A DNA stretch of 51,487 nucleotides, taken from assembly GCA_046760905.1 (NCBI GenBank), contig JBHIFB010000003.1, positions 1 to 51,487 of the forward strand, in the 5' to 3' direction. This document shows positions 1-25,759 of the stretch, piece by piece. Made by a program: the position numbers and the translations under genes. Source of the stretch: Candidatus Glassbacteria bacterium (GTDB lineage Bacteria; Gemmatimonadota; CAZMKB01). Within the stretch, counting starts at the first letter, position 1. Every line of letters starts with the position of its first letter. Below the pieces are notes generated by a model. That model was not told where the DNA came from. It did not search any database and saw nothing but the letters and a program-made list of their open reading frames with translations.

Positions 1-87
1 TTCCCAGAGTGATAATATGTTACCGTAATTGCGAACGCGACCACTAAGTTCCAGGAAAAAGGGGTAAAGTACACATATGGTTATCAC

Positions 88-116
88 TTGACGCTTATCG
101 TACGAAGTGATATTAT
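88..116 (+). promoter_or_regulatory. sigma70-type promoter candidate TTGACG-17 nt-TATTAT upstream of nudix-proS, nested in the inverted repeat TATCACTT-N15-AAGTGATA (82-112)
   Basis: TTGACG at 88-93, a 17-nt spacer at 94-110, TATTAT at 111-116. The 8-bp inverted repeat arms sit at 82-89 and 105-112. The whole element recurs at 4870-4904. Confidence 0.5.
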
Positions 117-203
117 ACCTGTGACTGCTCTTTGAGAGCGGGTTTATTTTTATTGTGAATAGTTCTACTTGATAAGGTCCCGCTATATTTGAAACTACGG
201 AAG

Positions 204-698
204 ATGGGATTTTCAGTAAGGGTTGCGGTGATCATAGTGAGAGAAGGGAGGATCTTACTCGCCCAGCACTCAAAGCAAGGATCCAGATACTGGGTCCTCC
301 CTGGTGGAAGGTTACAAAACGGCGAAAGCATCACAGACTGTGGTAGACGGGAGTTGTTTGAGGAGGCAGGGCTGGATGTTCGATTGGGGAATCTTCTCTA
401 TATTGGAGAATTTTTCGGTGAGGGTTTTCAGGTCCTAGATCTTTTTTTTCTCGGTGAGGCCACGAGTTGTGACACAACGCTCGGCCACGATCCCGAGGAT
501 ACCGGCCGGGCAAGAGTCTTGAGAAAGGTCAAATGGCACACACTCGATGAATTAAGGAAGGTGCTTCTACTGCCCGAGAGTGTTCATAGGGCACTTATTA
601 AGGATTGGCCCGGTGGCTTCAAGAGACGAGGCGTATACATAGGCTCTTCTAAAGAAGGGGCGTCGAAGGATGAATCTAAAACTCACCAAGAGAAGTGA
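204..698 (+). CDS. Nudix hydrolase
   Basis: ORF 189..698. Nudix box GGRLQNGESITDCGRRELFEEAGL. I prefer the ATG at 204 over the TTG at 189. The 3' end overlaps proS by 29 nt. Confidence 0.8.
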   Translation: MGFSVRVAVIIVREGRILLAQHSKQGSRYWVLPGGRLQNGESITDCGRRELFEEAGLDVRLGNLLYIGEFFGEGFQVLDLFFLGEATSCDTTLGHDPEDTGRARVLRKVKWHTLDELRKVLLLPESVHRALIKDWPGGFKRRGVYIGSSKEGASKDESKTHQEK

Positions 699-2100
699 AG
701 ATTACGCGAAGTGGTACACGGAAGTTGTGATGAGAGCGGAGCTGGCAGATTACGCCCCGGTGAAAGGGTGTATGGTGATTCGCCCCAACGGCTATGCGCT
801 CTGGGAGAAGATTCAGGCTGCCATCGATTCACTCATAAAGAAAACGGGTCACCAGAATGCGTATTTCCCGCTTTTCATACCGCAGAGTTTCATGGAGAGG
901 GAAGCTGAGCATGTGGAGGGTTTTGCCCCCGAATGTGCTGTTGTAACAGAGGGAGGTGGCAAGAAGCTCGAAGAGCCGCTGGTTGTGCGTCCCACTTCGG
1001 AAACAATAATCTACCACATGTTCGCCAAGTGGATAATGTCATACAGGGATCTTCCGCTGCTCATTAACCAGTGGGCGAATATCGTCCGGTGGGAAATGAG
1101 GACCCGCCTATTCCTCCGGACCACAGAGTTCCTCTGGCAGGAAGGCCATACTGCCCACGCGAGCTATGAAGAAGCCGAGGAGGAGACCCTGCGCATACTC
1201 GATCTCTACACAGAGTTCCTCGAAGACTGGATGGCGATCCCGGTCATCAGGGGTAAAAAGAGCGAGTCGGAGAAATTTGCAGGTGCACTTCACACATACT
1301 GTGTGGAAGCGATGATGCAGGATCGAAAGGCGCTCCAGGCCGGCACATCCCACAATCTGGGACAGAATTTTGCCCGGGTATTCGATGTGAAATATCAGAC
1401 AAAAGAGGGGCGGGAAGAATATGTCTGGAATACGAGCTGGGGGGTGAGCACGAGGCTCATCGGTGCCCTCGTCATGACTCACGGCGATGATATCGGGCTC
1501 ATAATACCTCCCAGATTGGCTCCGGTTCAGGCAGTCATCGTCCCCATCTGGACCAACGACGAGGAGAAGAGAGTCATCGAGCCTGAGGTTCGAAACATGC
1601 TGGAGAAGTACACAGACTCATTTACGATACGCGTCGATGACCGTACCGATCTAGCTCTCGGGAGAAGATTCTACCTCTGGGAGGAGAGAGGTGTGCCTCT
1701 CAGGATCGAGATAGGTCCGAAAGATGTTTCAGAGAAGAGTGTGCTCATGGTTCGAAGGGATACGGGGGAGAAGATGACTGTCCCTCTGGAACGGGTTGTG
1801 GCGGTAGTGGGGGAAGTGCTCGATTCGATTCAAGAAAATCTTTACATGAGAGCCAAAAAGTTAAGGGACGAAAATACTTACACGGTCGATGATTATGAGG
1901 CTTTCAGGAATGTCATGGAATCAGAGGGCGGGTTCATCTCGGCTCACTGGTGCGGCGGGCCGAATTGTGAGGAGGTGGTGAAGGAACAAACCAAGGCAAC
2001 AATCAGATGCATCCCATTCGACTCGGAGAATGAGGAGGGCAGATGCATAGTCTGCCAAAAGGCTTCGCCACAGAGGGTCATTTTCGCCAAAGCATACTGA
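670..2100 (+). CDS. proS: Prolyl-tRNA synthetase, archaeal/eukaryote-like type (no editing insertion, C-terminal Zn-binding domain ending in Tyr)
   Basis: 476-aa ORF. N-terminus KRSEDYAKWYTEVV...ADYAPVKGCMVIRPNGYALWE, class II core, C-terminus CIVCQKASPQRVIFAKAY. Confidence 0.92.
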   Translation: MNLKLTKRSEDYAKWYTEVVMRAELADYAPVKGCMVIRPNGYALWEKIQAAIDSLIKKTGHQNAYFPLFIPQSFMEREAEHVEGFAPECAVVTEGGGKKLEEPLVVRPTSETIIYHMFAKWIMSYRDLPLLINQWANIVRWEMRTRLFLRTTEFLWQEGHTAHASYEEAEEETLRILDLYTEFLEDWMAIPVIRGKKSESEKFAGALHTYCVEAMMQDRKALQAGTSHNLGQNFARVFDVKYQTKEGREEYVWNTSWGVSTRLIGALVMTHGDDIGLIIPPRLAPVQAVIVPIWTNDEEKRVIEPEVRNMLEKYTDSFTIRVDDRTDLALGRRFYLWEERGVPLRIEIGPKDVSEKSVLMVRRDTGEKMTVPLERVVAVVGEVLDSIQENLYMRAKKLRDENTYTVDDYEAFRNVMESEGGFISAHWCGGPNCEEVVKEQTKATIRCIPFDSENEEGRCIVCQKASPQRVIFAKAY

Positions 2101-2135
2101 ATAGAAAATAGCACTCAGAGAGAAGGAAAAAGCGG

Positions 2136-2293
2136 ATGGCGGGAGAGAAAGTACTTATTCTCGATTTCGGTTCACAGTATACACAGCTCATCGCAAGAAG
2201 GGTGAGGGAGATGGGGGTATACTCTGTCATAGAGAGGTATGATCACCCTGTTAGCGAATTCGATATATCGGTGAGCGTGATCACACTCTCCGG
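2136..2293 (+). pseudogene. guaA: Truncated 5' fragment of guaA (duplicate of 5200-5357)
   Basis: Nucleotides 2136-2264 (43 codons, [43 protein letters not shown]) are identical to 5200-5328. Similarity ends at 2293 and the frame then runs into unrelated GC-rich sequence. Confidence 0.85.
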
Positions 2294-2503
2294 TCGAGAA
2301 AAGGCGCCTTTATTTTGGCGAAGAAGGCCCTCTCGTGCCGCCTCCGGTTCACGTCTTTCTCTCCGACACGAAGCGTCACATAGTTATCACGGGACCGGAG
2401 AAGATAGAGCTCGTCAAGCTCGGGTGGATCGAGGGGATTCTGATATGAAAAAAGCGGGGCCGTCTAGGTGCCGTGTGTACCCCTTGGGCGGGGTTGCATT
2501 GAG

Positions 2504-3919
2504 ATGAGCCGGATCCAGACCGCTTCCCTCGTGGTGGGCGCCATCTTCTTCGTTTCTTTTCTTTTCGTGGCGGTTTCCTCTCTCCGCGAGGGTGAACGCC
2601 GTGCCGCGGGCCGTGCTTTGTTGCTCTGTCTGCTTCTCCCCATCCCATACACGGTCGCGGCCTTTTTACAGGATCACCCCGGCAGCGACATCTCTCTTGC
2701 TCTCCTGCTCCTCACCGTCTCAACCGTCCTCATCCTAATTCTCCCGGTACGGAGCTCGAAGCTGCAAGGAAGCGACACACCGAAACAGCGCATAGACGAG
2801 AGGGATGTCATGTTCTCGCGGCAGCTACTGGTCGAGGGAACGAGGAGGTTCGAAGAATACTACAGGGAAAATCCCAGCAAGAGGCTTCTCGACGACGAGT
2901 TCAGGTCCCGTCCCGGCCTTCTCGACCGGAAGGCGGCCCTTTATCACCCCCTAGCATTCCCAGCTGCAAAAGCTACTTTCGAAGTTGTTGAGGGCCTTCA
3001 CCCCCTGGTCGAAGGCGAACCCTCGAGTGAACGCCAGGCCTTCGACCCTCGCTCCCTCACCGAATTCATCAAGGAATGGGCCAGGGGAAACGGTGCGGCC
3101 TCTGTCGGCGTGACCGACGTCAGGGACTATCACCTCTATGAGAGGATCGGGCGCGGAGCAGATTACGGAAAGCCTGTGATCCTGGATCACAAATGGGCCA
3201 TCGCACTCACGGTGGAGATGCGTCTGGAAATGATATCCCGGGCACCCATGGCTCTCACCACGATGGAATCGGCCGAACGCTACCTCACCTCTGGAGCGAT
3301 GGCCGTTCAGATCGCCCGTTTCATCAGAACTCTCGGTTACCGGGCACGTGCCCATATCGACGGAAATTACCGTGTCGTATGCCCGCTCGTCGCGCGGGAC
3401 GCCGGACTAGGCGAGATAGCGAGGATGGGGCTTCTCATGACTCCGAGGTTCGGGCCCCGGGTGCGTATAGCTGTCGTCACGACCGACCTGCCTCTCCCTC
3501 CAGATGAGCCCTCGAGGGATGACACCGTGATCGACTTCTGCACGTTCTGTAGTAAATGCGCGGAAGCCTGCCCGGGCAGGGCCATACCCTTCGGAGGACG
3601 GGAGAGAGTGGAAGGCATACTCAGGTGGCGCATCGATTCGGAAGCGTGTTACACTCACTGGTGCAAGGTCGGAACCGACTGCGCGCGGTGCATTGCCGTG
3701 TGCCCCTATTCGCACCCGACGACCCTGATGCACAACGCTGTGAGATTTGGGGTGCGGACCTTCCCTCTCTTCAGGAGACTCGCAGTCGTCATGGATGATT
3801 TCTTATACGGCAGGAGGCCCCAACCTCACCCGCTTCCTCGATGGATGGAAGCATGCGGCATCGAGGGCACGCGGGTGGAGAGTCTTTCTGACGGGGACAT
3901 CCGGGACCCGCTGCTTTGA
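2504..3919 (+). CDS. Membrane-anchored reductive-dehalogenase-like / QueG-like protein with two 4Fe-4S cluster motifs
   Basis: ORF 2468..3919, with the ATG at 2504 preferred. The N-terminus has about three hydrophobic helices ([45 protein letters not shown]). C-terminal motifs are [17 protein letters not shown] and C[14 protein letters not shown]. No twin-arginine signal is visible. Confidence 0.6.
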
Positions 3920-3933
3920 GGAGGAGAATTCAG

Positions 3934-4704
3934 GTGAGAAATCGCCTTCTTCTTCTAACGGTCATGATAATATTGCCGGCCGCAGGATGCCAAGAGGAGG
4001 AACCGCTGGCCCCATACGGCGGCTGGCCTCCTTCCGGTGTTCTTTTCATCGGAAACAGTTACACCTCTTACAACGGCGGCCTCGACGCGCTCGTCGAGGG
4101 GCTCGTCGAAACGGGGATCCCTTCGCATGATATAGAGACGGGAATCGTTGCCCCTTCAGGGTACACTCTCTCCATGCACGCTGAGAGCCGGGAAACACGG
4201 GAGGCGATTGCAGACGGCGACTGGGATGTCGTGGTGATTCAGGAACAGAGCACGACTCCCCTTACCAATCCGGAGGCGATGTTCAACGCCGCACGGGAGA
4301 TCGACCGGTTCATAAGAGAATCGGGGGCACAGACAGTTCTGTTCATGACATGGGCCCGCGAGGCGAGCCCCGGGACGATCGAGGGGATCGCGGCCGTCTA
4401 CGACTCGCTCGGCGAGGAGCTGGGCGCACCGGTCGCCCCTGTCGGAAGGGCTTTCAGCCTGGCCCTCGAGAGAAGACCGGATATCGGGCTCTACGATCCG
4501 GACGGGAGCCACCCGGATGCAAGAGGAAGCTACCTTGCAGCATGCCTTTTCTATGCCTTCCTCTGGGGGGAAGATCCCCGGGGAAACGTGTTCACTGCAG
4601 ACCTCGTACTCGAGCCTGCGGAGAGGAGTTTCCTCCAGGAGATCGCGTGGGAAGTCATCGACACGAAACCGGGACTCTTCACACAACAAACGAAGTCTAG
4701 ATGA
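3934..4704 (+). CDS. SGNH/GDSL-like hydrolase lipoprotein
   Basis: ORF 3916..4704. A GTG at 3934 follows GAGGAGGAG. Signal peptide with lipobox MRNRLLLLTVMIILPAAGC. Block I-like VLFIGNSYT, DVVVIQEQS, block V-like DGSHPDARGSYLAA. Confidence 0.55.
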   Translation: MRNRLLLLTVMIILPAAGCQEEEPLAPYGGWPPSGVLFIGNSYTSYNGGLDALVEGLVETGIPSHDIETGIVAPSGYTLSMHAESRETREAIADGDWDVVVIQEQSTTPLTNPEAMFNAAREIDRFIRESGAQTVLFMTWAREASPGTIEGIAAVYDSLGEELGAPVAPVGRAFSLALERRPDIGLYDPDGSHPDARGSYLAACLFYAFLWGEDPRGNVFTADLVLEPAERSFLQEIAWEVIDTKPGLFTQQTKSR

Positions 4705-4875
4705 AACGACTGTCTTTGTGTGCGGCGGTTCCCGCAATCCTCGCATCCTCTCTTGGAGCGAAGACGGCCGCATCTCTTTATGCCCCGAAGGCGACATGCA
4801 TTGCCTCACCCAGTTCACGGCGGAGGCAAGTTGAACCTCATTCTCATTGGGTAGGGGTCTTGGTATAGCTATCAC

Positions 4876-4904
4876 TTGACGCTTATCGTATGAAGTGATA
4901 TTAT
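4876..4904 (+). promoter_or_regulatory. Duplicate of the nudix-proS promoter, now the nearest promoter upstream of the intact guaA
   Basis: TTGACG at 4876-4881, a 17-nt spacer, TATTAT at 4899-4904. The inverted repeat TATCACTT/AAGTGATA is retained at 4870-4877 and 4893-4900. Confidence 0.5.
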
Positions 4905-4991
4905 ACCTGTGACTGCTCTTTGAGAGCGGGTATGTTTTTATTGTGAATAGTACTAATTGAGAAAGCCCCGCTATATTTTAAGCTACGGAAG

Positions 4992-5164
4992 ATGGGATTT
5001 TCATTAAGGGTCGCGGTGATCATAGTGAGAGAAGGGAGGATCTTACTCGCCCGGCACTGAAGACTGGATAGCGATCCCCGTCATCAGGGGTAAAAAGAGC
5101 GAGTCGGAGAAATTTGCAGAAGCACGTCAAATCACAGAGGGTAGTCTTCGCCAAAGCATACTGA
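4992..5164 (+). pseudogene. Relics of nudix (22 codons, stop at 5058-5060) fused to two scraps of proS (5059-5119 and 5133-5164)
   Basis: 4992-5057 encodes MGFSLRVAVIIVREGRILLARH, compared with MGFSVRVAVIIVREGRILLAQH in the intact gene. The proS scraps include the terminal ...FAKAY-TGA region. Confidence 0.85.
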
Positions 5165-5199
5165 ATAGAAAATAGAACTCAGAGAGAAGGAAAGAGCGG

Positions 5200-6738
5200 A
5201 TGGCGGGAGAGAAAGTACTTATTCTCGATTTCGGTTCACAGTATACACAGCTCATCGCAAGAAGGGTGAGGGAGATGGGGGTATACTCTGTCATAGAGAG
5301 GTATGATCACCCTGTTAGCGAATTCGATCCATCGGTGAGTGCGATCATACTCTCCGGGGGGCCATCCAGCATATACGAAAGTGACGCTCCAAGATGCTCT
5401 CCTGAAATCCTGCAACTGGGTAAACCCATTCTCGGGATTTGCTATGGGATGCAAGTCACAGCACACGTTCTCGGTTGTCCAATAGTTAAAGGAGGCAGGA
5501 GTGAATACGGGGAGACGCTTCTTACGATCGTGGAGCCCGACCTCCTCTTTGACGGCTTCGATAAGGGCGAGACGACACGTGTTTGGATGAGTCATAAAGA
5601 CAGGGTGGAGGAGCTGCCGCCTGGATTCAGGCTCCTGGCACATACAGAGAACTCGCATATAGCTTCTTTCGGGAACCTCGAGAAGAAGATATACGGAGTA
5701 CAGTTTCATCCTGAGGTTATTCATACAGTAAGAGGTATGGATGTCCTCAGGAATTTTCTTTTCCGAATATGCCGGCTGAAAGGGGACTGGAGCCTTGGCG
5801 ATTTCATCGAGGAGGCCATGGAGGGAATTCGGACAGTTGTTGCGAATGGGAAGGCCATAGGCGCGATGAGCGGCGGGGTGGATTCTTCGGTCGCCTCACT
5901 GCTCGCCCACAGAGCTATCGGGAAAAACTACATCCCAATCTTCGTGGATACCGGGCTGCTCAGGTCTGGTGACAGGGAGAGGGTGGAATCCCTTGGCAGG
6001 GAATTCCAGATCACACCTCACATTATAGATGCAGAGGAAGATTTCCTGAGAAGGCTTAAGGGTGTCACAGATCCTGAAGAGAAGAGGCGCCGAATCGGGA
6101 ACATGTTCATCGAAATCTTCGAGACGGAAGCGGCCAGGGAAGGAGGTATCGAGTACCTCATACAGGGAACGCTTTATCCTGACGTAATAGAGAGTCTCTC
6201 CGTTCGAGGACCATCCTCTACGATCAAGACTCACCATAACGTCGGAGGTTTGCCAGACAATGTACCGTTCACTCTCATCGAGCCACTGAAAGAGCTGTTC
6301 AAGGATGAAGTGAGAGAGGTGGGGAGGGCACTCGGCGCTTCAGATCAGATCCTAGGAAGGCATCCTTTCCCCGGGCCTGGACTCGCGGTGAGGATCCTGG
6401 GTGAGGTCACAAGGGAGGCTCTCACGACTCTCAGATCAGCGGACCGGATATTCATTGAAGAGATAGAAGCAATGGGAATCTATGACGAGATCTGGCAGGC
6501 TTTTGCCGTGCTTCTGCCCGTAAGATCAGTTGGTGTGATGGGTGATGAGCGGACATATGAAAATGTTGTGGCTTTGAGGGCCGTTACCAGTCGTGACGGC
6601 ATGACGGCTGATTGGTACCGCTTCACGGGAGAACAGTTGGGCCACATCTCCAACAGGATTGTAAACGAGGTCGAGGGGGTGAATCGGGTGGTCTATGACG
6701 TGAGCTCAAAACCACCTAGCACCATCGAATGGGAATGA
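5200..6738 (+). CDS. guaA: GMP synthase (glutamine-hydrolysing)
   Basis: 512 aa. GATase catalytic motif ILGICYGMQ, ATP-PPase P-loop SGGVDSS, C-terminus PPSTIEWE. Confidence 0.95.
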   Translation: MAGEKVLILDFGSQYTQLIARRVREMGVYSVIERYDHPVSEFDPSVSAIILSGGPSSIYESDAPRCSPEILQLGKPILGICYGMQVTAHVLGCPIVKGGRSEYGETLLTIVEPDLLFDGFDKGETTRVWMSHKDRVEELPPGFRLLAHTENSHIASFGNLEKKIYGVQFHPEVIHTVRGMDVLRNFLFRICRLKGDWSLGDFIEEAMEGIRTVVANGKAIGAMSGGVDSSVASLLAHRAIGKNYIPIFVDTGLLRSGDRERVESLGREFQITPHIIDAEEDFLRRLKGVTDPEEKRRRIGNMFIEIFETEAAREGGIEYLIQGTLYPDVIESLSVRGPSSTIKTHHNVGGLPDNVPFTLIEPLKELFKDEVREVGRALGASDQILGRHPFPGPGLAVRILGEVTREALTTLRSADRIFIEEIEAMGIYDEIWQAFAVLLPVRSVGVMGDERTYENVVALRAVTSRDGMTADWYRFTGEQLGHISNRIVNEVEGVNRVVYDVSSKPPSTIEWE

Positions 6739-6741
6739 GTT

Positions 6742-7119
6742 TCAGTTCTCGGTTTGACTATTCTCCTGTTCGGGCGGTTCGAGTCTCCTGTTGATAGTAT
6801 CAAGCAGATTACTCCAGAACTCCGGTTCCTTGTGGGTGTTGGTGATGAATGAGACGAGATGTTCTTCGGTGATGCCGTGAGAAGAGAGATACTCATCACG
6901 TCTTTTTTTGAATAGCTCCCAATCGCCGCCGCACTCTCTCTCGATGAGAGTGAGCGACACATAATGTTCCACGAACTCATCAGTAGTGAGCAGAACTTGA
7001 GGTGTTTGCTTCTCTTTTGAAACGACGTGGCTGCTTGTATCCTCCTCTTCCTTCTGGAAGCGTGTGGGGGTTCCTTGTACCAGTTGTAGTATGATGAGCG
7101 CTAAGAAAATCGTATTCAC
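6742..7119 (-). CDS. Hypothetical small secreted protein
   Basis: 125-aa ORF with a signal-like N-terminus (MNTIFLALIILQLVQG) and no recognisable domain. It sits only 35 nt from the divergent PilZ gene, so coding status is uncertain. Confidence 0.4.
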   Translation of the reverse strand: MNTIFLALIILQLVQGTPTRFQKEEEDTSSHVVSKEKQTPQVLLTTDEFVEHYVSLTLIERECGGDWELFKKRRDEYLSSHGITEEHLVSFITNTHKEPEFWSNLLDTINRRLEPPEQENSQTEN

Positions 7120-7154
7120 TTCTCATTCCTCGTCCTTGCAAAGGAGCGATCCGT

Positions 7155-7523
7155 ATGACTGAAAGGCGAAGGTATGAAAGGATCAAAATCCAGCTCACAG
7201 GGTCCATTAAAGATAGGGAGATCGAACGGGGTCTTACGAGACCTTCCGTGGCGATACTCGATCTCAGCCTTGGAGGAGCCTACTGTGAGATTGGACGCTA
7301 CCTGCCCCCCCTTACGAAAGTTATGCTCAGCCTCAACTTTCCCGGTGATGCCGAGGAAGAGGCTGCGGTGTGCCGGGGAGTCGTAGTCAGAGTTGAACCA
7401 GAAGAGGAGGAAGCGGAGAGGGAGAACTATAAAGTCGGTATCCTTTTCACGGAGATATCCAGGGAAGACAGGGATAAGCTCAAACATTTTCTCGGGCGCC
7501 AGCTGGAAAAGGGTTCCGGATAA
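7155..7523 (+). CDS. Single-domain PilZ protein (c-di-GMP receptor type)
   Basis: RxxxR motif within RRRYERI, and D-x-S-x-x-G motif DLSLGG. Confidence 0.7.
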   Translation: MTERRRYERIKIQLTGSIKDREIERGLTRPSVAILDLSLGGAYCEIGRYLPPLTKVMLSLNFPGDAEEEAAVCRGVVVRVEPEEEEAERENYKVGILFTEISREDRDKLKHFLGRQLEKGSG

Positions 7524-7662
7524 CCTGGTCACTCTCCCTTCATCATAAAGTGATTCGCCTCTCAAGTCAACAATCTATTATCAGAATTTTCCTCACACGT
7601 TTTATAATTAATTTAAGAGCCAGAATTTAAAACAGCATGGTTAAGAATCGAGCTACCGAGCC

Positions 7663-8979
7663 CTAATCGTTTTTCAGCAGATTTTCAGGGAGGATCCTCT
7701 CAAGCTGCTCGGTGATCTGGGAGCTCTCCGAATCGGTGAAAGGCTTCTTTCGGAAGCTATCGTTACCGTATCCGATGACGATTATCTCGGGAACCCTGAG
7801 CAGCAGGAAGATTACGATCGCCCATTGCATCAACCTTCGCCACTTCGTCCATTTTTCTGTAATCCAACACGCCAGAGGAATGGAAGCGGCATGTAGTGCT
7901 ATGACGACATGCCAGCCCTGAATCGTTACCGGTGAGAAAGCGCTGGAGATAACTACAGCCAGAAAGCAATTAAACGCATAGGAATGGAGCCGGTTCCAGC
8001 TCTCTTTCAGATCACATTCCGGTCTCTTTCGTCTGAAGAACCACCATGATGCTGCCAGAGACAGTATGATAGTTATAACCGTAAGCGCATAGAGCACAAT
8101 GACCGCGAACTGTAGGATCCTTCTTGCCGGATCATCACCTATCCAGTTGCTATCAAGGAAGATGACATGTCGTAGGCGTCTACCGATATCAAGCGATCCA
8201 AGCCTGAACCAGTACAGAATTCCACGCAGAACAGGATATACTGTTACAAGCCCACGGCCAATGAAGCTCTGTGTGGGAAGAAAATTATGTAAGCTCCCTC
8301 GTGTTATGGCCATGATAGTGGGAATGAGTGGAATCGCTCCAATCACAACGCCGAGAAGAGCACCGGCCGCATTGATCCTGATGGATTTTCTGATGTACAG
8401 AAGCAACGTCAGGATAACGAGTATCAGGAAAGAGCCGTGTAACTGGGATGTAAGCACAAGGATTGCTGTGAGACCTGCGGAAGCGCCCAGATTTGCACGA
8501 TCCATAAGCTTCCATACTGACCAGAAATGGATGGCCGCTGGAAGGAAGAGGAATGATGGCTCCCAGACGAAGCCGGAGTGATATAAGCGCCACGGAGACA
8601 ACCAGTAAACTATGAGGAAAACGAGGGTGAGCCGCACCCCGGTCTGTCTCAGAATAATACTCACAAGAAGGAGAGCGGAAATGACATGGAACAGTCCAAT
8701 TAGAGCGACCGGGGCGCGGTAATCTGGCCATATCCTGAGCGGAAGACCTATCAGAAGTTGAAGAAGGCATCCGGGAATAGGTGCGCCTCCCGGCGCAAAT
8801 TTGGAAATCGGTGCAAGCTCACCGGTTTTTGCATAGCCGAGACCCAGCTTGAGAAGAGTGATCTGGTCACCGTGGATCCAGCTCCTGAACATAAGAAAGA
8901 GTTGAATAGAAACACCCAGGATAAAGACCGCAATAATCGCCAGAATATACATGTATCGGGATCGGTTTGTATTTTTCAT
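7663..8979 (-). CDS. Polytopic membrane protein, possibly a GT-C-fold (ArnT/PMT-like) glycosyltransferase
   Basis: 438 aa with more than 10 hydrophobic segments and an acidic first loop (WIHGDQ). The functional assignment is weak. Confidence 0.45.
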   Translation of the reverse strand: MKNTNRSRYMYILAIIAVFILGVSIQLFLMFRSWIHGDQITLLKLGLGYAKTGELAPISKFAPGGAPIPGCLLQLLIGLPLRIWPDYRAPVALIGLFHVISALLLVSIILRQTGVRLTLVFLIVYWLSPWRLYHSGFVWEPSFLFLPAAIHFWSVWKLMDRANLGASAGLTAILVLTSQLHGSFLILVILTLLLYIRKSIRINAAGALLGVVIGAIPLIPTIMAITRGSLHNFLPTQSFIGRGLVTVYPVLRGILYWFRLGSLDIGRRLRHVIFLDSNWIGDDPARRILQFAVIVLYALTVITIILSLAASWWFFRRKRPECDLKESWNRLHSYAFNCFLAVVISSAFSPVTIQGWHVVIALHAASIPLACWITEKWTKWRRLMQWAIVIFLLLRVPEIIVIGYGNDSFRKKPFTDSESSQITEQLERILPENLLKND

Positions 8980-9238
8980 TTTCTTGCGGTATAGGCTGTT
9001 ATCGCTATCGCAGGCGATCAGTTACATGCATAGTGGTTTTTAAAACTTATTTAGTGTCACAGAGATCGATATCTACCTATATTATGGGAAGTATTAGATC
9101 ATGGCAATAGGAATCTCCATATGAATTTCCCGGTCATTCCCGAACCTGATAGATTGTGACCGGATGTTGAGAACGTTCGGGACGCTCCGCTTGTCATCCT
9201 AACTCTTGAGCCCATCAGGCATTGCGATAAGGGATCCC

Positions 9239-9267
9239 TTGACGCTTTCGGGAATGAGGATTAAATT
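9239..9267 (+). promoter_or_regulatory. sigma70-type promoter candidate TTGACG-17 nt-TAAATT upstream of the TPR gene
   Basis: TTGACG at 9239-9244 and TAAATT at 9262-9267, about 30 nt before the ATG at 9297. Confidence 0.35.
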
Positions 9268-9296
9268 TCCTTGATTATAAGCGCAGGTGACATACT

Positions 9297-10967
9297 ATGA
9301 ATGGGAATTACGGTTTATCAAGATTTCTCCTCTTTCTCGCATTTTCATATCTCATTACGCCAACCACTGTGGGCGCATACAGTTCGAGGGCTGCGGTCTA
9401 TTTTGCTATGTCGGTCAGGCAGCAAATGAACGGTGAGCATGATGATGCCATAGAAAGCCTGAAGTGGGCCGTCATTCTTGATCCCCAGTCAACTTTTCTC
9501 CTGGAGAAACTCACAGAACAGCTTCACAGAATGGGTGACTATGAGACGATAATCGAAACCATCACCCCGCTCGCTCTGCAGCACGAGAGCCCGAAGATAT
9601 ACAAACTAATCGGATCCTCCTATGAGAGCCTCATGGATTACGATCAGGCGGTGCACTTTTACAAAAAAGCCCATTCCCTGGATCCGGATGATAAAGGCAA
9701 TATGGAGCATCTATGCAACCTGCTCGATTCGCTGGGGAAGCTTGAGGATGCCGAGTCACTAATCGGGGAGGGAGTCGCAAGATTCCCCGACTCGGTTGAC
9801 CTGCTTTATCTCATGGGAAGGCTCCGTTTCAGACAGGAACAGCTCGACAGCGCGTCAGCATATCTCAAGCGAGTTCTCGAAATCTCTCCTCTTCATACCG
9901 AGTCGCACTGGCTGCTGGGAAATATTTCTGAACGCAAGAGAGATTATGAATCTGCGAGGAGCTATTACGAATCGCTCCTGGTGATGAGACCGAATGACCC
10001 TGCTCTTCTGAGCGCCCTTTTAAGGGTGCTTTCAAAATCGCAGGAATTCGATAAAGCGATAGAATACGGGGAGAAGCTACTGGTCGCGAATCCTACAAAC
10101 AGTTCACTCATTGGGATGATGGGAATACTTTACTATGAAGTTGCCCTTTACGAGAAAGCCGTGGATGCGCTTGAGAAGGCGATAGCCTTAGGTAACACAG
10201 GCTATGACGTGCATCTTGTGCTCGGACAGTCTTTATTAGAGATCAACGAACAGGAGGAGGCCCTCAGGCAGTTCGAGATAACCACCAAGCTGGATTCCAC
10301 ACGGACCTCTGGGTGGTTGTATATGGGGCTTACATACCTGAGCATAGACCAGGCGGCGGATGCCCTGGCCGCGCTTGAACGAGCCGCCTCACTGGATACA
10401 TCGTTTGCGTATATCCATTACCTGCAGGGGCTCGCCCACAGCAGATTGGAGGATCACGAGGATGCCCTTGAGAGCTTTCAGCGTGCCCTGGCGCTTCAGC
10501 CGAACGACAGGGACATACTCTTCCAGTGCGCCGCAACATACGACAATCTCGGCAGAAAGGATAAGGCCGAAGAGATATTGCAAGAACTCCTGAAGAACTA
10601 TCCCGACGATGCTCCCATACTTAACTACCTCGGTTATCTTTGGGCCGAGCAGGCAAAGAATCTGATAGAGGCGAGGAGGCTGGTTACCAGAGCCCTGGAG
10701 AAAGACCCCGAAAACGGATATTACATAGATAGCCTTGGCTGGGTATACTATCAACTGGGAAAACTGGACAGTGCTCTCGTTGAGATGAAGCGTTCCTTGG
10801 ATAGAGTTGATGATGACCCCGTCATATTTGAACATCTGGGCGACATATATCGGGATCTCGGTGAGACTGGCAAAGCGAAAGAGGCTTGGGAGAAATCGCT
10901 GAAACTCGATCCAACCAATGATGGGCTCAAAAGAAAGCTCGAGAAAGCGCATGAGCAGAGGGAGTAG
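9297..10967 (+). CDS. Secreted tetratricopeptide-repeat (TPR) protein
   Basis: 556 aa. Signal-like N-terminus, then more than 10 repeats of about 34 aa with the A-x-x-x-Y/F-x-x-A-L-x-L-D-P pattern. Confidence 0.85.
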   Translation: MNGNYGLSRFLLFLAFSYLITPTTVGAYSSRAAVYFAMSVRQQMNGEHDDAIESLKWAVILDPQSTFLLEKLTEQLHRMGDYETIIETITPLALQHESPKIYKLIGSSYESLMDYDQAVHFYKKAHSLDPDDKGNMEHLCNLLDSLGKLEDAESLIGEGVARFPDSVDLLYLMGRLRFRQEQLDSASAYLKRVLEISPLHTESHWLLGNISERKRDYESARSYYESLLVMRPNDPALLSALLRVLSKSQEFDKAIEYGEKLLVANPTNSSLIGMMGILYYEVALYEKAVDALEKAIALGNTGYDVHLVLGQSLLEINEQEEALRQFEITTKLDSTRTSGWLYMGLTYLSIDQAADALAALERAASLDTSFAYIHYLQGLAHSRLEDHEDALESFQRALALQPNDRDILFQCAATYDNLGRKDKAEEILQELLKNYPDDAPILNYLGYLWAEQAKNLIEARRLVTRALEKDPENGYYIDSLGWVYYQLGKLDSALVEMKRSLDRVDDDPVIFEHLGDIYRDLGETGKAKEAWEKSLKLDPTNDGLKRKLEKAHEQRE

Positions 10968-24472: not shown

Positions 24473-25759
24473 TTGGCGGAGAAATACCGCGTGGATAAAT
24501 TCATCATTGAGGGTGGAAAGACGCTCGAGGGGCAGGTGGCCGTATCCGGTTCTAAGAACTCCTGCCTGCCGATAATGGCAGCCAGCTTACTTACGCGTGG
24601 GGAGACTGTCATTGAAAATGTTCCTGCACTGCGGGATGTATACACAATGGCCCGCGTGCTCGAGAATCTGGGCGTTAAAGTCTCGATTGGGAAAGGCCGG
24701 GCCAGCATCACAACCACGGATTACACGGGATTCATTGCACCATACGAATTGGTGAGAACCATGCGTGCCTCGTATTATGTGCTGGGGCCCCTTCTGGCTG
24801 TAATGAGAAAGGCCAGGGTCTCTTTGCCGGGAGGATGTACGATCGGGGCTCGTCCGGTGAATCTTCACATCGATGGATTGAGGGCTTTGGGTGCACGTAT
24901 CGATATCGTGCATGGATTCATCGATGCGAGCGCAGATAAGCTCGCGGGAACGAAAATAAACCTTAGCGGACAGAAGGGGTCTAGCGTAGGGGCAACCATC
25001 AATGTTATGATGGCGGCCACTCTTGCTGAAGGTGTGACTACCATAGAAGGTGCGGCAATGGAACCGGAAGTAGTCGACGTGGCAGGTTTCATCAGGGCTA
25101 TGGGCGGTGATATAGAGGGCGACGGCACCCCTGTCATAACCATCAAAGGTAAGGAGAGTCTGAAACCGGCTCGCTACAAGATAATACCCGATAGAATCGA
25201 GGCCGGGACTCTGGCAGTTGTGGTTGCAATGGTCGGGGGCGATGTCCTTGTTGAAAGCTGTGATCCTGCGCATCTCGCCTATACTCTGGATACTCTGAGC
25301 CGGATAGGGGCCCGGATCGAGACGAGAAGCGATGCGTTTCATATAATGAGCGATGGCGCGAGACGGCTCGAGTGTTTCTCCGTAGAAGCGGCACCGTATC
25401 CAGGCTTCCCAACCGATATGCAGGCACAGTTCATGGCGATGGCGACCCTGATTCGAGGCGTGAGCGTGATCAAGGAATCTATTTTTGAAAATAGGTTCCT
25501 CCATGCGGTGGAACTTGCCCGAATGGGGGCGGACATCACACTCGAAGGATCTGTGGCGCGAGTCAGCGGGGTGGAGAAATTGAGCGGAGCACCTGTTATG
25601 GCATCGGATCTAAGGGCTAGTGCCGCTCTGGTTCTGGCTGGACTGGCCGCTGAGGGAGAGACCCATGTGTACAGAATATATCATCTGGACAGGGGATATG
25701 AGTCTCTGGAGAAAAAGCTCCGCAGTCTGGGTGCCGTGTGTGAGAGGATAACAGATTAG
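24473..25759 (+). CDS. murA: UDP-N-acetylglucosamine 1-carboxyvinyltransferase
   Basis: VSGSKNS and the active-site LPGGCTIGARPVNLH. 428 aa. Confidence 0.95.
   Translation: MAEKYRVDKFIIEGGKTLEGQVAVSGSKNSCLPIMAASLLTRGETVIENVPALRDVYTMARVLENLGVKVSIGKGRASITTTDYTGFIAPYELVRTMRASYYVLGPLLAVMRKARVSLPGGCTIGARPVNLHIDGLRALGARIDIVHGFIDASADKLAGTKINLSGQKGSSVGATINVMMAATLAEGVTTIEGAAMEPEVVDVAGFIRAMGGDIEGDGTPVITIKGKESLKPARYKIIPDRIEAGTLAVVVAMVGGDVLVESCDPAHLAYTLDTLSRIGARIETRSDAFHIMSDGARRLECFSVEAAPYPGFPTDMQAQFMAMATLIRGVSVIKESIFENRFLHAVELARMGADITLEGSVARVSGVEKLSGAPVMASDLRASAALVLAGLAAEGETHVYRIYHLDRGYESLEKKLRSLGAVCERITD

Follow-up and report, generated by a model that had tools for sequence, protein, structure and literature searches.

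In Campbell-type insertion-duplication, a circular DNA carrying one homology arm enters the chromosome by a single crossover, as in laboratory insertion-duplication mutagenesis. Tn5801-like elements target the 3' end of guaA by means of a tyrosine integrase and regenerate just a few codons. De Vries and Wackernagel in 2002 and Prudhomme et al. in 2002 are said to have described homology-facilitated illegitimate recombination (HFIR) of foreign DNA in natural transformation, and duplication-decay models have reportedly been developed by Roth and colleagues. HFIR is discussed in PMC3240628, and cassette insertions in essential genes have been recovered in merodiploids retaining an intact copy (Johnston et al. 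2013, PMC3784515). Here we describe a 51,487-nt stretch of DNA from Candidatus Glassbacteria bacterium (contig JBHIFB010000003.1; the whole stretch is called the window), in which the front of a nudix-proS-guaA operon occurs as two diverged direct copies with a foreign insert of 2,576 bp between them. We read this as a real, inherited insertion-duplication in the chromosome of an uncultured bacterium. With moderate confidence, we attribute it to an old segmental duplication that sheltered an illegitimate insertion in one guaA copy and was followed by reciprocal deletional decay and gene conversion.

Three blocks of the operon front recur downstream, all collinear, ungapped and in direct orientation (coordinates of the features are collected in Table 1). 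Block A is identical at 176 of its 189 positions (93%), with a weak extension to 76-273, and block C at 215 of 225 (96%). In block B, 59 of 61 positions are identical (97%; 1222-1282 versus 5059-5119), or 66 of 71 if the match is extended to 1292/5129. The alignment bore out the three collinear, indel-free blocks of the original prediction and replaced its estimate of about 90% for block A, made by eye, with the value above. It likewise bore out that guaA codons 1-43 (2136-2264) are nucleotide-identical in the two copies; they lie in a stretch of 134 identical nucleotides around the guaA start (2131-2264 = 5195-5328). No other long repeats occur in the 51-kb window, which excludes a chance origin of the blocks. 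Position 2293 is the last of copy 1, and 4870, the equivalent of position 82, is the first of copy 2; the contig itself begins just 81 nt upstream of the repeat.

The two copies have kept different genes. According to the list of open reading frames (ORFs) and Pfam, nudix and proS are intact in copy 1 only and guaA is intact in copy 2 only, which confirms the reciprocal pattern proposed earlier, with guaA cut at 2293 in copy 1 and mere scraps of nudix and proS in front of a full guaA in copy 2. The Pfam GATase fragment of copy 1 is confined to guaA codons 1-53 (2136-2293), after which the ORF remains open in foreign sequence up to 2507. In copy 2, the nudix gene is reduced to the predicted relic ORF of 22 codons (4992-5057), closed by a TGA at 5058-5060, and the reading frames of its two proS scraps do not match. 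Thus, copy 2 upstream of guaA is a non-coding relic.

To find the ancestral arrangement, we scanned one genome per species for relatives of the prolyl-tRNA synthetase (ProRS). Two close relatives were found, both metagenome-assembled genomes (MAGs) labelled Gemmatimonadota, with ProRS amino acid identities of 79% (L001) and 75% (L002). Both have nudix, proS and guaA contiguous, and the insert is absent. The uninterrupted arrangement that the original prediction had proposed to look for in the closest genomes therefore exists, and the split operon is derived in the lineage of the window. Collinearity between L001 and the window extends over some 10 kb of L001 sequence, beginning at nudix and reaching the end of the L001 locus. 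The genes downstream of its guaA are those that follow the intact guaA of the window, namely a minus-strand 125-aa ORF, genes for a PilZ and a TPR protein, and others. This collinearity breaks only at window 2294-5193 and at window ~7523-9330. Conservation with L001 starts within a few bases of position 82, the start of the repeat, and a promoter-like TTGACG-17-TATTAT with a small hairpin is also present in L001. As a separate observation, the second break (7523-9330) holds a gene for a 438-aa multi-pass membrane protein (ORF 7663-8979, minus strand) between the PilZ and TPR genes; the ORF has no Pfam match, and L001 has just about 170 nt at this place.

The original prediction had named the lack of reads across either outer junction as a finding that would speak against it. 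Exact-protein look-ups of ProRS, GuaA, NUDIX and the 471-aa form of the reductive-dehalogenase-family (RDH) protein encoded in the insert gave no match. The 483-aa call of the RDH-family protein led to two Logan contigs of 2,687 bp each, L081 (SRR29324583) and L082 (SRR29324585), both of which correspond to window 2235-4921 and contain the outer junctions 2293/2294 and 4869/4870, as judged by 40-mers. While the contig from SRR29324585 is identical to the window, L081 differs by three single-nucleotide polymorphisms (SNPs) at 2883, 3100 and 4691. All three are located in the insert (R->K in the RDH-family protein, one synonymous change, and T->R in the DUF4886 protein), and none was seen in the 59 + 52 nt of flanking repeat covered. 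Because each of these contigs, which come from two other runs and represent two haplotypes, contains both outer junctions, the junctions are real and inherited. An assembly chimera should lack its junctions in independent assemblies, and neither outer junction was absent from them. The inner relic junctions have no k-mer in common with any alternative path, so that the assembler is unlikely to have invented them. A search with an exact 29-mer from the identical guaA 5' region matched no JGI metagenome contig.

These contigs also bear on the possibility that the assembly is mis-phased or mixes strains, with a chromosome that carries the intact operon and with 2265-5328 (3,064 bp) belonging to a separate circle, a tandem array or another member of the population. 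Assemblers with k < 134 cannot phase the identical stretch, and L081 and L082 end exactly at 31-mers common to both repeat copies (2235 and 4921); as Logan contigs are built with k = 31, the repeats cannot be phased from them. The start of the contig so close to the repeat also fits such an error. However, a 3-kb circle without a replication function would not persist, and the arrangement was seen in two runs and two haplotypes. The junction between the guaA stump and the insert exists in real molecules, as the relic junctions probably do, and direct support may have been available to the assembler, since 134 nt can be spanned by 150-nt reads or at k = 141. Moreover, decay specific to the relics and an identical centre with diverged edges fit two converting copies in one genome. 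We therefore regard mis-phasing as quite unlikely.

The insert, called foreign-looking in the original prediction, proved to be an outlier by every measure of composition used. It is the GC maximum of the window, with 59% (0.592) against 50% in the rest, and the GC content at third codon positions (GC3) of two of its genes deviates by z = +4.8 and +4.1 when set against 36 other genes. In tetranucleotide usage, the insert lies at a distance of 0.396 from the remainder of the window, while equal-sized background pieces gave 0.187 +/- 0.018 with a maximum of 0.229. At its left end, the plus-strand frame 2293-2445 matched 37 proteins at E <= 1e-3 in a library of 1.8 billion proteins, nearly all at their extreme C-terminus, and the full-length matches P0245 and P0268 carry PF04015 (DUF362). 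This frame is thus the C-terminal tail of DUF362-family proteins, and the left junction severs the donor gene about 50 codons before its stop. One cluster member, P0243, was set aside as an unrelated 39-aa ORF. A 20-nt inverted match between the proS 3' end and 2314-2333 was considered as an inverted proS relic; since the plus-strand DUF362 frame explains this sequence, the match was treated as chance.

The RDH-family protein reached 163.3 bits with NCBIfam TIGR02486 (cut-off 160.35), contains Pfam Fer4_7, and is full length against its homologues, the best of which is 61% identical. Its start is ambiguous, being GTG 2468 in the Logan gene call and ATG 2504 in the NCBI call. A 30-nt direct match of 83% identity (AAAAAGC...GGTGCCGTGTGT) was noticed between 2449-2478, upstream of this gene, and 25712-25741, 23 kb away, and is probably due to chance. 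The DUF4886 protein has a lipobox-like AAGC in its translation, and its closest relatives are just 47% identical. The 55-codon ORF at the right end gave no family match; from its position and signal-peptide-like start, it is probably the 5' stump of the next (fourth) gene of the donor. Both ends of the insert thus appear to cut through genes. The severed DUF362-family gene indicates a random chunk of the operon of another genome. The databases searched yielded no close donor and no native DUF362-RDH-DUF4886 context. The RDH-family protein has its best relatives in unrelated neighbourhoods, and the context of the best DUF4886 relative is likewise unrelated.

We also considered whether the insert is a mobile element. 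A domain search of both strands of the insert detected no recombinase, integrase, transposase, rep gene, origin or replication domain. Its termini showed no terminal inverted repeats (the best inverted match was 7 nt) and no target-site duplication or flanking direct repeat. An insertion sequence (IS), composite transposon, integrative and conjugative element (ICE), integrative and mobilizable element (IME), prophage, island or integron-like element was rejected for want of a recombinase, terminal inverted repeats and a target-site duplication. An integrative element was also rejected because the repeats are operon pieces of 189-225 nt and not att sites, there is no integrase, and a scan of the window for tRNA genes found none. 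Judged by its sequence, the insert comes from the interior of a foreign operon and was joined through illegitimate recombination; it is not a discrete mobile element.

The divergence between the copies carries further information on their history. The 28 differences in 485 nt are unevenly spread (chi-square p = 2.6e-6). The promoter with its hairpin has one mismatch in 62 nt, while the rest of the leader has 9 in 60; the nudix codons have 3 in 67, the proS piece 2 in 61, and the proS 3' end with the spacer 5 in 67. No mismatch occurs in the 129 nt of guaA codons 1-43, for which the probability is about 3e-5 at the mean rate of the other segments, and the last 29 nt of the guaA stump (2265-2293) have five. 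On average, the copies have diverged by 6%, and by up to 15-17% in unconstrained stretches. The near-perfect conservation of the promoter suggests selection to keep guaA transcribed. The identical centre and diverged edges of block C fit gene conversion between repeats in one genome, of which they are the usual signature.

The differences were polarised with L001, L002 and eight further ProRS relatives. Of the polarisable sites, the derived state falls in the non-functional relics at 9-10 and in functional sequence at 0-1. Derived sites in the leader and nudix relic of copy 2 are 144, 191, 194 and 216. The proS scrap of copy 2 carries the derived changes M188I and G205E, at nearly invariant and invariant ProRS positions, respectively, and the guaA stump of copy 1 carries P->I, A->V and I->T against conserved residues. 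Within 2265-2293, all three polarisable differences (2266, 2278 and 2284) are derived in copy 1 compared with L001 and L002. Derived states in the non-functional pieces fit in-place decay of redundant DNA after a duplication. An import of copy 2 from a diverged sister lineage is disfavoured, because the changes at conserved residues lie in the relics and are not split between the copies.

The same data bear on a Campbell-type single crossover, in which a circular, non-replicating DNA with the foreign fragment and an already shortened arm (promoter, nudix 1-67, proS 553-623, proS 3' end and guaA 1-158) recombined inside block C and duplicated the arm. The topology is exactly that of an insertion-duplication, as copy 1 ends at the arm end (2293) and copy 2 starts at the arm start (82). 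Furthermore, the longest uninterrupted homology (134 identical nt) lies in block C, where the crossover would have to have occurred, and the derived changes are located on the would-be donor arm (copy 2 of blocks A and B, the left part of copy 2 of block C, and 2265-2293). However, the donor would need a decayed, twice-deleted copy of the same operon next to foreign DNA, which presupposes an earlier duplication and is less parsimonious. No replicon feature, be it an origin, a rep gene or an integrase, is present in the insert, whose ends both cut genes. An arm start exactly at the promoter edge would be a coincidence, and the crossover leaves unexplained why 134 identical nt have flanks differing by 7-17%. 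We consider a Campbell-type origin unlikely.

Under duplication followed by insertion and decay, the ancestor would have had a single operon of promoter, nudix, proS and guaA. The operon front, from the promoter to guaA codon 53 or beyond, would have been duplicated head to tail to give a merodiploid segment. Illegitimate recombination would then have placed a random 2.6-kb piece of a higher-GC foreign operon (DUF362-RDH-DUF4886-next gene) at the joint or close to it, with the guaA 5' end of copy 1 on its left and the copy 2 promoter on its right. Since copy 2 still had an intact guaA, this insertion could be tolerated. Subsequent loss of redundant DNA would have been reciprocal. Copy 1 would have retained nudix and proS, while two internal deletions (about 951 and 776 bp) would have left in copy 2 the promoter, the leader, a 22-codon upstream ORF (uORF), 71 nt + 32 nt of proS, and the spacer with the ribosome-binding region before guaA. 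The deletions may have stopped at functional elements, namely the promoter edge (the 82-equivalent) and the spacer with the ribosome-binding region, and occasional gene conversion would keep the central 134 nt identical while the relic edges drift. We infer the order of these steps. As expected of a tandem duplication, the relatives have an uninterrupted single copy, each gene is intact in one of two head-to-tail copies, and substitutions are concentrated in the redundant parts. The left edge of the repeat coincides with the upstream edge of the conserved promoter, as expected from selection-limited trimming.

Several points weigh against this scenario. There is no simple novel joint; the joint is occupied by the 2,576 bp of foreign DNA, and because the insert lies exactly there, a plain tandem duplication with an independent insertion needs an extra deletion or a combined event. 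It is slightly unexpected of long neutral decay that some 485 nt of relic should carry 28 substitutions but no small indels, and the internal deletion junctions lack clean microhomology. Phasing across the 134-nt identical stretch comes from the deposited assembly alone. The outgroups are distant (75-79% amino acid identity), so that polarisation depends on few sites, and promoter activity and operon read-through are predictions.

The position of the insert would be accounted for by a single event of replicative template switching, similar to microhomology-mediated break-induced replication (MMBIR) or fork stalling and template switching (FoSTeS), in which the scraps were never part of a full second copy. 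In this path, a fork would have collapsed in guaA at 2293, used 2.6 kb of foreign DNA in the cell as template, and then returned to the chromosome behind itself at 82, from where it jumped to 1222 and to 2069 before going onward. Short collinear patches (189, 71 and 225 nt) with jumps between them and a foreign segment at the joint are a typical product, and the 5129/5133 junction has a 5-nt filler and a shared CACA. However, there is no usable microhomology at 5058/5059, and for the two outer junctions no donor sequence was found for comparison; with copies now 6% diverged overall, details of the original junctions may have been erased. Selection on deletions also explains better why the left edge coincides with the promoter edge. 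We judge one-step template switching to be decidedly unlikely. It is highly improbable, in our estimation, that the 3,064-bp unit is an integrase-free cassette that enters and leaves the chromosome, and passes from one related strain to another by transformation, through RecA-dependent recombination alone; the pruned operon front would then serve as attachment arm and as a portable promoter keeping guaA alive, with the 134-nt core as a recurrent crossover site.

Taken together, the diverged direct duplication around a foreign insert described in the original prediction stands. The two mechanisms offered with it, a Campbell-type crossover and a tandem duplication with loss of redundant sequence, are both possible, and the evidence leans to duplication and decay. 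Duplication with decay, Campbell-type crossover and template switching are each a known kind of event.

The arrangement has consequences for expression of the operon. The intact guaA would now be driven by the retained second promoter. No terminator-like site was found on the plus strand between proS and the insert genes or between the insert and the second promoter; accordingly, the foreign genes are predicted to be transcribed, probably, from the operon promoter as nudix-proS-guaA'-RDH-DUF4886. The stop codon of the guaA stump (TGA 2505-2507) overlaps ATG 2504 of the RDH-family gene (ATGA). Translation of the latter is possibly coupled to the stump, which would give a reason for survival of the stump. 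The open frame of the stump through 70 foreign codons could also be chance, at roughly 1-in-10 for the open frame alone. In copy 1, the promoter-like TTGACG-17-TATTAT, with a TG, lies at 88-116 and is followed by a hairpin with a T-run at 125-141. The 7-bp hairpin (CTGCTCT/AGAGCGG) and its T-run, present at 125-141 and 4913-4929, lie about 8 nt past the predicted -10 box. In L001 the hairpin is conserved (about 7463-7490), a compensatory change included; that of L002 lacks the T-run. An Rfam search of positions 1-7500 gave no RNA family, leader hairpin included, and the structure of the whole leader is no stronger than that of shuffled sequences. The hairpin might act on the nudix-proS-guaA operon as a 5' stabiliser or as an attenuator.

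Table 1. Positions of the operon copies, their genes and relics, and the insert in the window
Feature	Position	Strand	Basis or remark
Block A, copy 1: operon promoter, leader and first 22 nudix codons	82..270	+	176/189 vs 4870-5058
NUDIX hydrolase gene, intact	204..698	+	Pfam PF00293, E = 2e-17; syntenic with L001 and L002
proS (prolyl-tRNA synthetase), intact	670..2100	+	Pfam tRNA-synt_2b, HGTP_anticodon, ProRS-C_1; 79% aa identity to L001
Block B, copy 1: internal proS piece	1222..1292	+	recurs at 5059-5129
Block C, copy 1: proS 3' end, spacer and guaA 5' end	2069..2293	+	215/225 vs 5133-5357
guaA stump: 53 guaA codons and 70 out-of-context codons	2136..2507	+	GATase residues 7-52 only (Pfam)
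3' relic of DUF362-family gene, about 50 codons and stop	2293..2448	+	severed by left junction
Foreign insert, 2,576 bp	2294..4869	+	composition; not in L001 or L002
RDH-family Fe-S protein gene, N-terminal membrane helices	2504..3919	+	alternative start GTG 2468
DUF4886 (SGNH-like) predicted lipoprotein gene	3934..4704	+	Pfam PF16227, E = 1.3e-8
55-codon ORF, signal-peptide-like start	4701..4868	+	ATG 4701 overlaps DUF4886 stop (ATGA); ends 1 nt before right junction
Block A, copy 2: second promoter 4876-4904, hairpin 4913-4929, nudix relic ORF	4870..5058	+	repeat alignment
Block B, copy 2: non-coding internal proS scrap	5059..5129	+	out of frame with next scrap
Block C, copy 2: proS 3' scrap, spacer with guaA ribosome-binding region, guaA 5' end	5133..5357	+	
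guaA (GMP synthase), intact	5200..6738	+	Pfam GATase, NAD_synthase, GMP_synt_C; 75% aa identity to L001, full length

The locus provides a clean natural case in which foreign genes became fixed within a housekeeping operon that survived. The downstream gene would have been rescued by a duplicated cassette of promoter and leader, and the redundant copies would have decayed reciprocally until pruned to functional elements, so that some 500 nt show deletion bias, selection-limited trimming and gene conversion side by side. An RDH-family gene has also come under the predicted constitutive promoter of an aminoacyl-tRNA-synthetase operon. The locus is a tidy but ordinary example of bacterial tolerance to insertion in an important gene and no new kind of system; its value is that of a case study. 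For annotation of MAGs it calls for caution, as the guaA stump, the relic uORF and the second promoter could all be misread.

Among described systems, guaA-targeting islands and ICEs of the Tn5801 type likewise interrupt guaA and preserve a functional copy, but at this locus guaA is broken at codon 53, an integrase is absent, and the functional copy is maintained through a 2.2-kb duplication. As in Campbell insertion-duplication, direct arm repeats flank the insert, the left copy is cut at the 3' end of the arm and the right copy starts at its 5' end. Unlike in that process, a vector or replicon backbone is missing, the two repeats have diverged and differ in length, the right one being internally deleted, and the insert is a gene-cutting fragment of a foreign operon. 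The locus shares with HFIR foreign DNA without mobility genes and gene-cutting, microhomology-poor junctions beside host-homologous sequence; HFIR normally replaces or deletes recipient DNA, whereas here 2.2 kb was duplicated and no donor-side homologous anchor is identifiable. In sheltering merodiploids, one copy of the target is interrupted by heterologous DNA, an intact copy is kept in a direct duplication, and redundant genes are free to change or go (PMC3784515), as at this locus. Those duplications span 100-900 kb, are bounded by IS-derived repeats and are unstable (PMC3784515), whereas here the second copy consists of old scraps of ~0.5 kb, without bounding mobile repeats, pruned to a promoter cassette.

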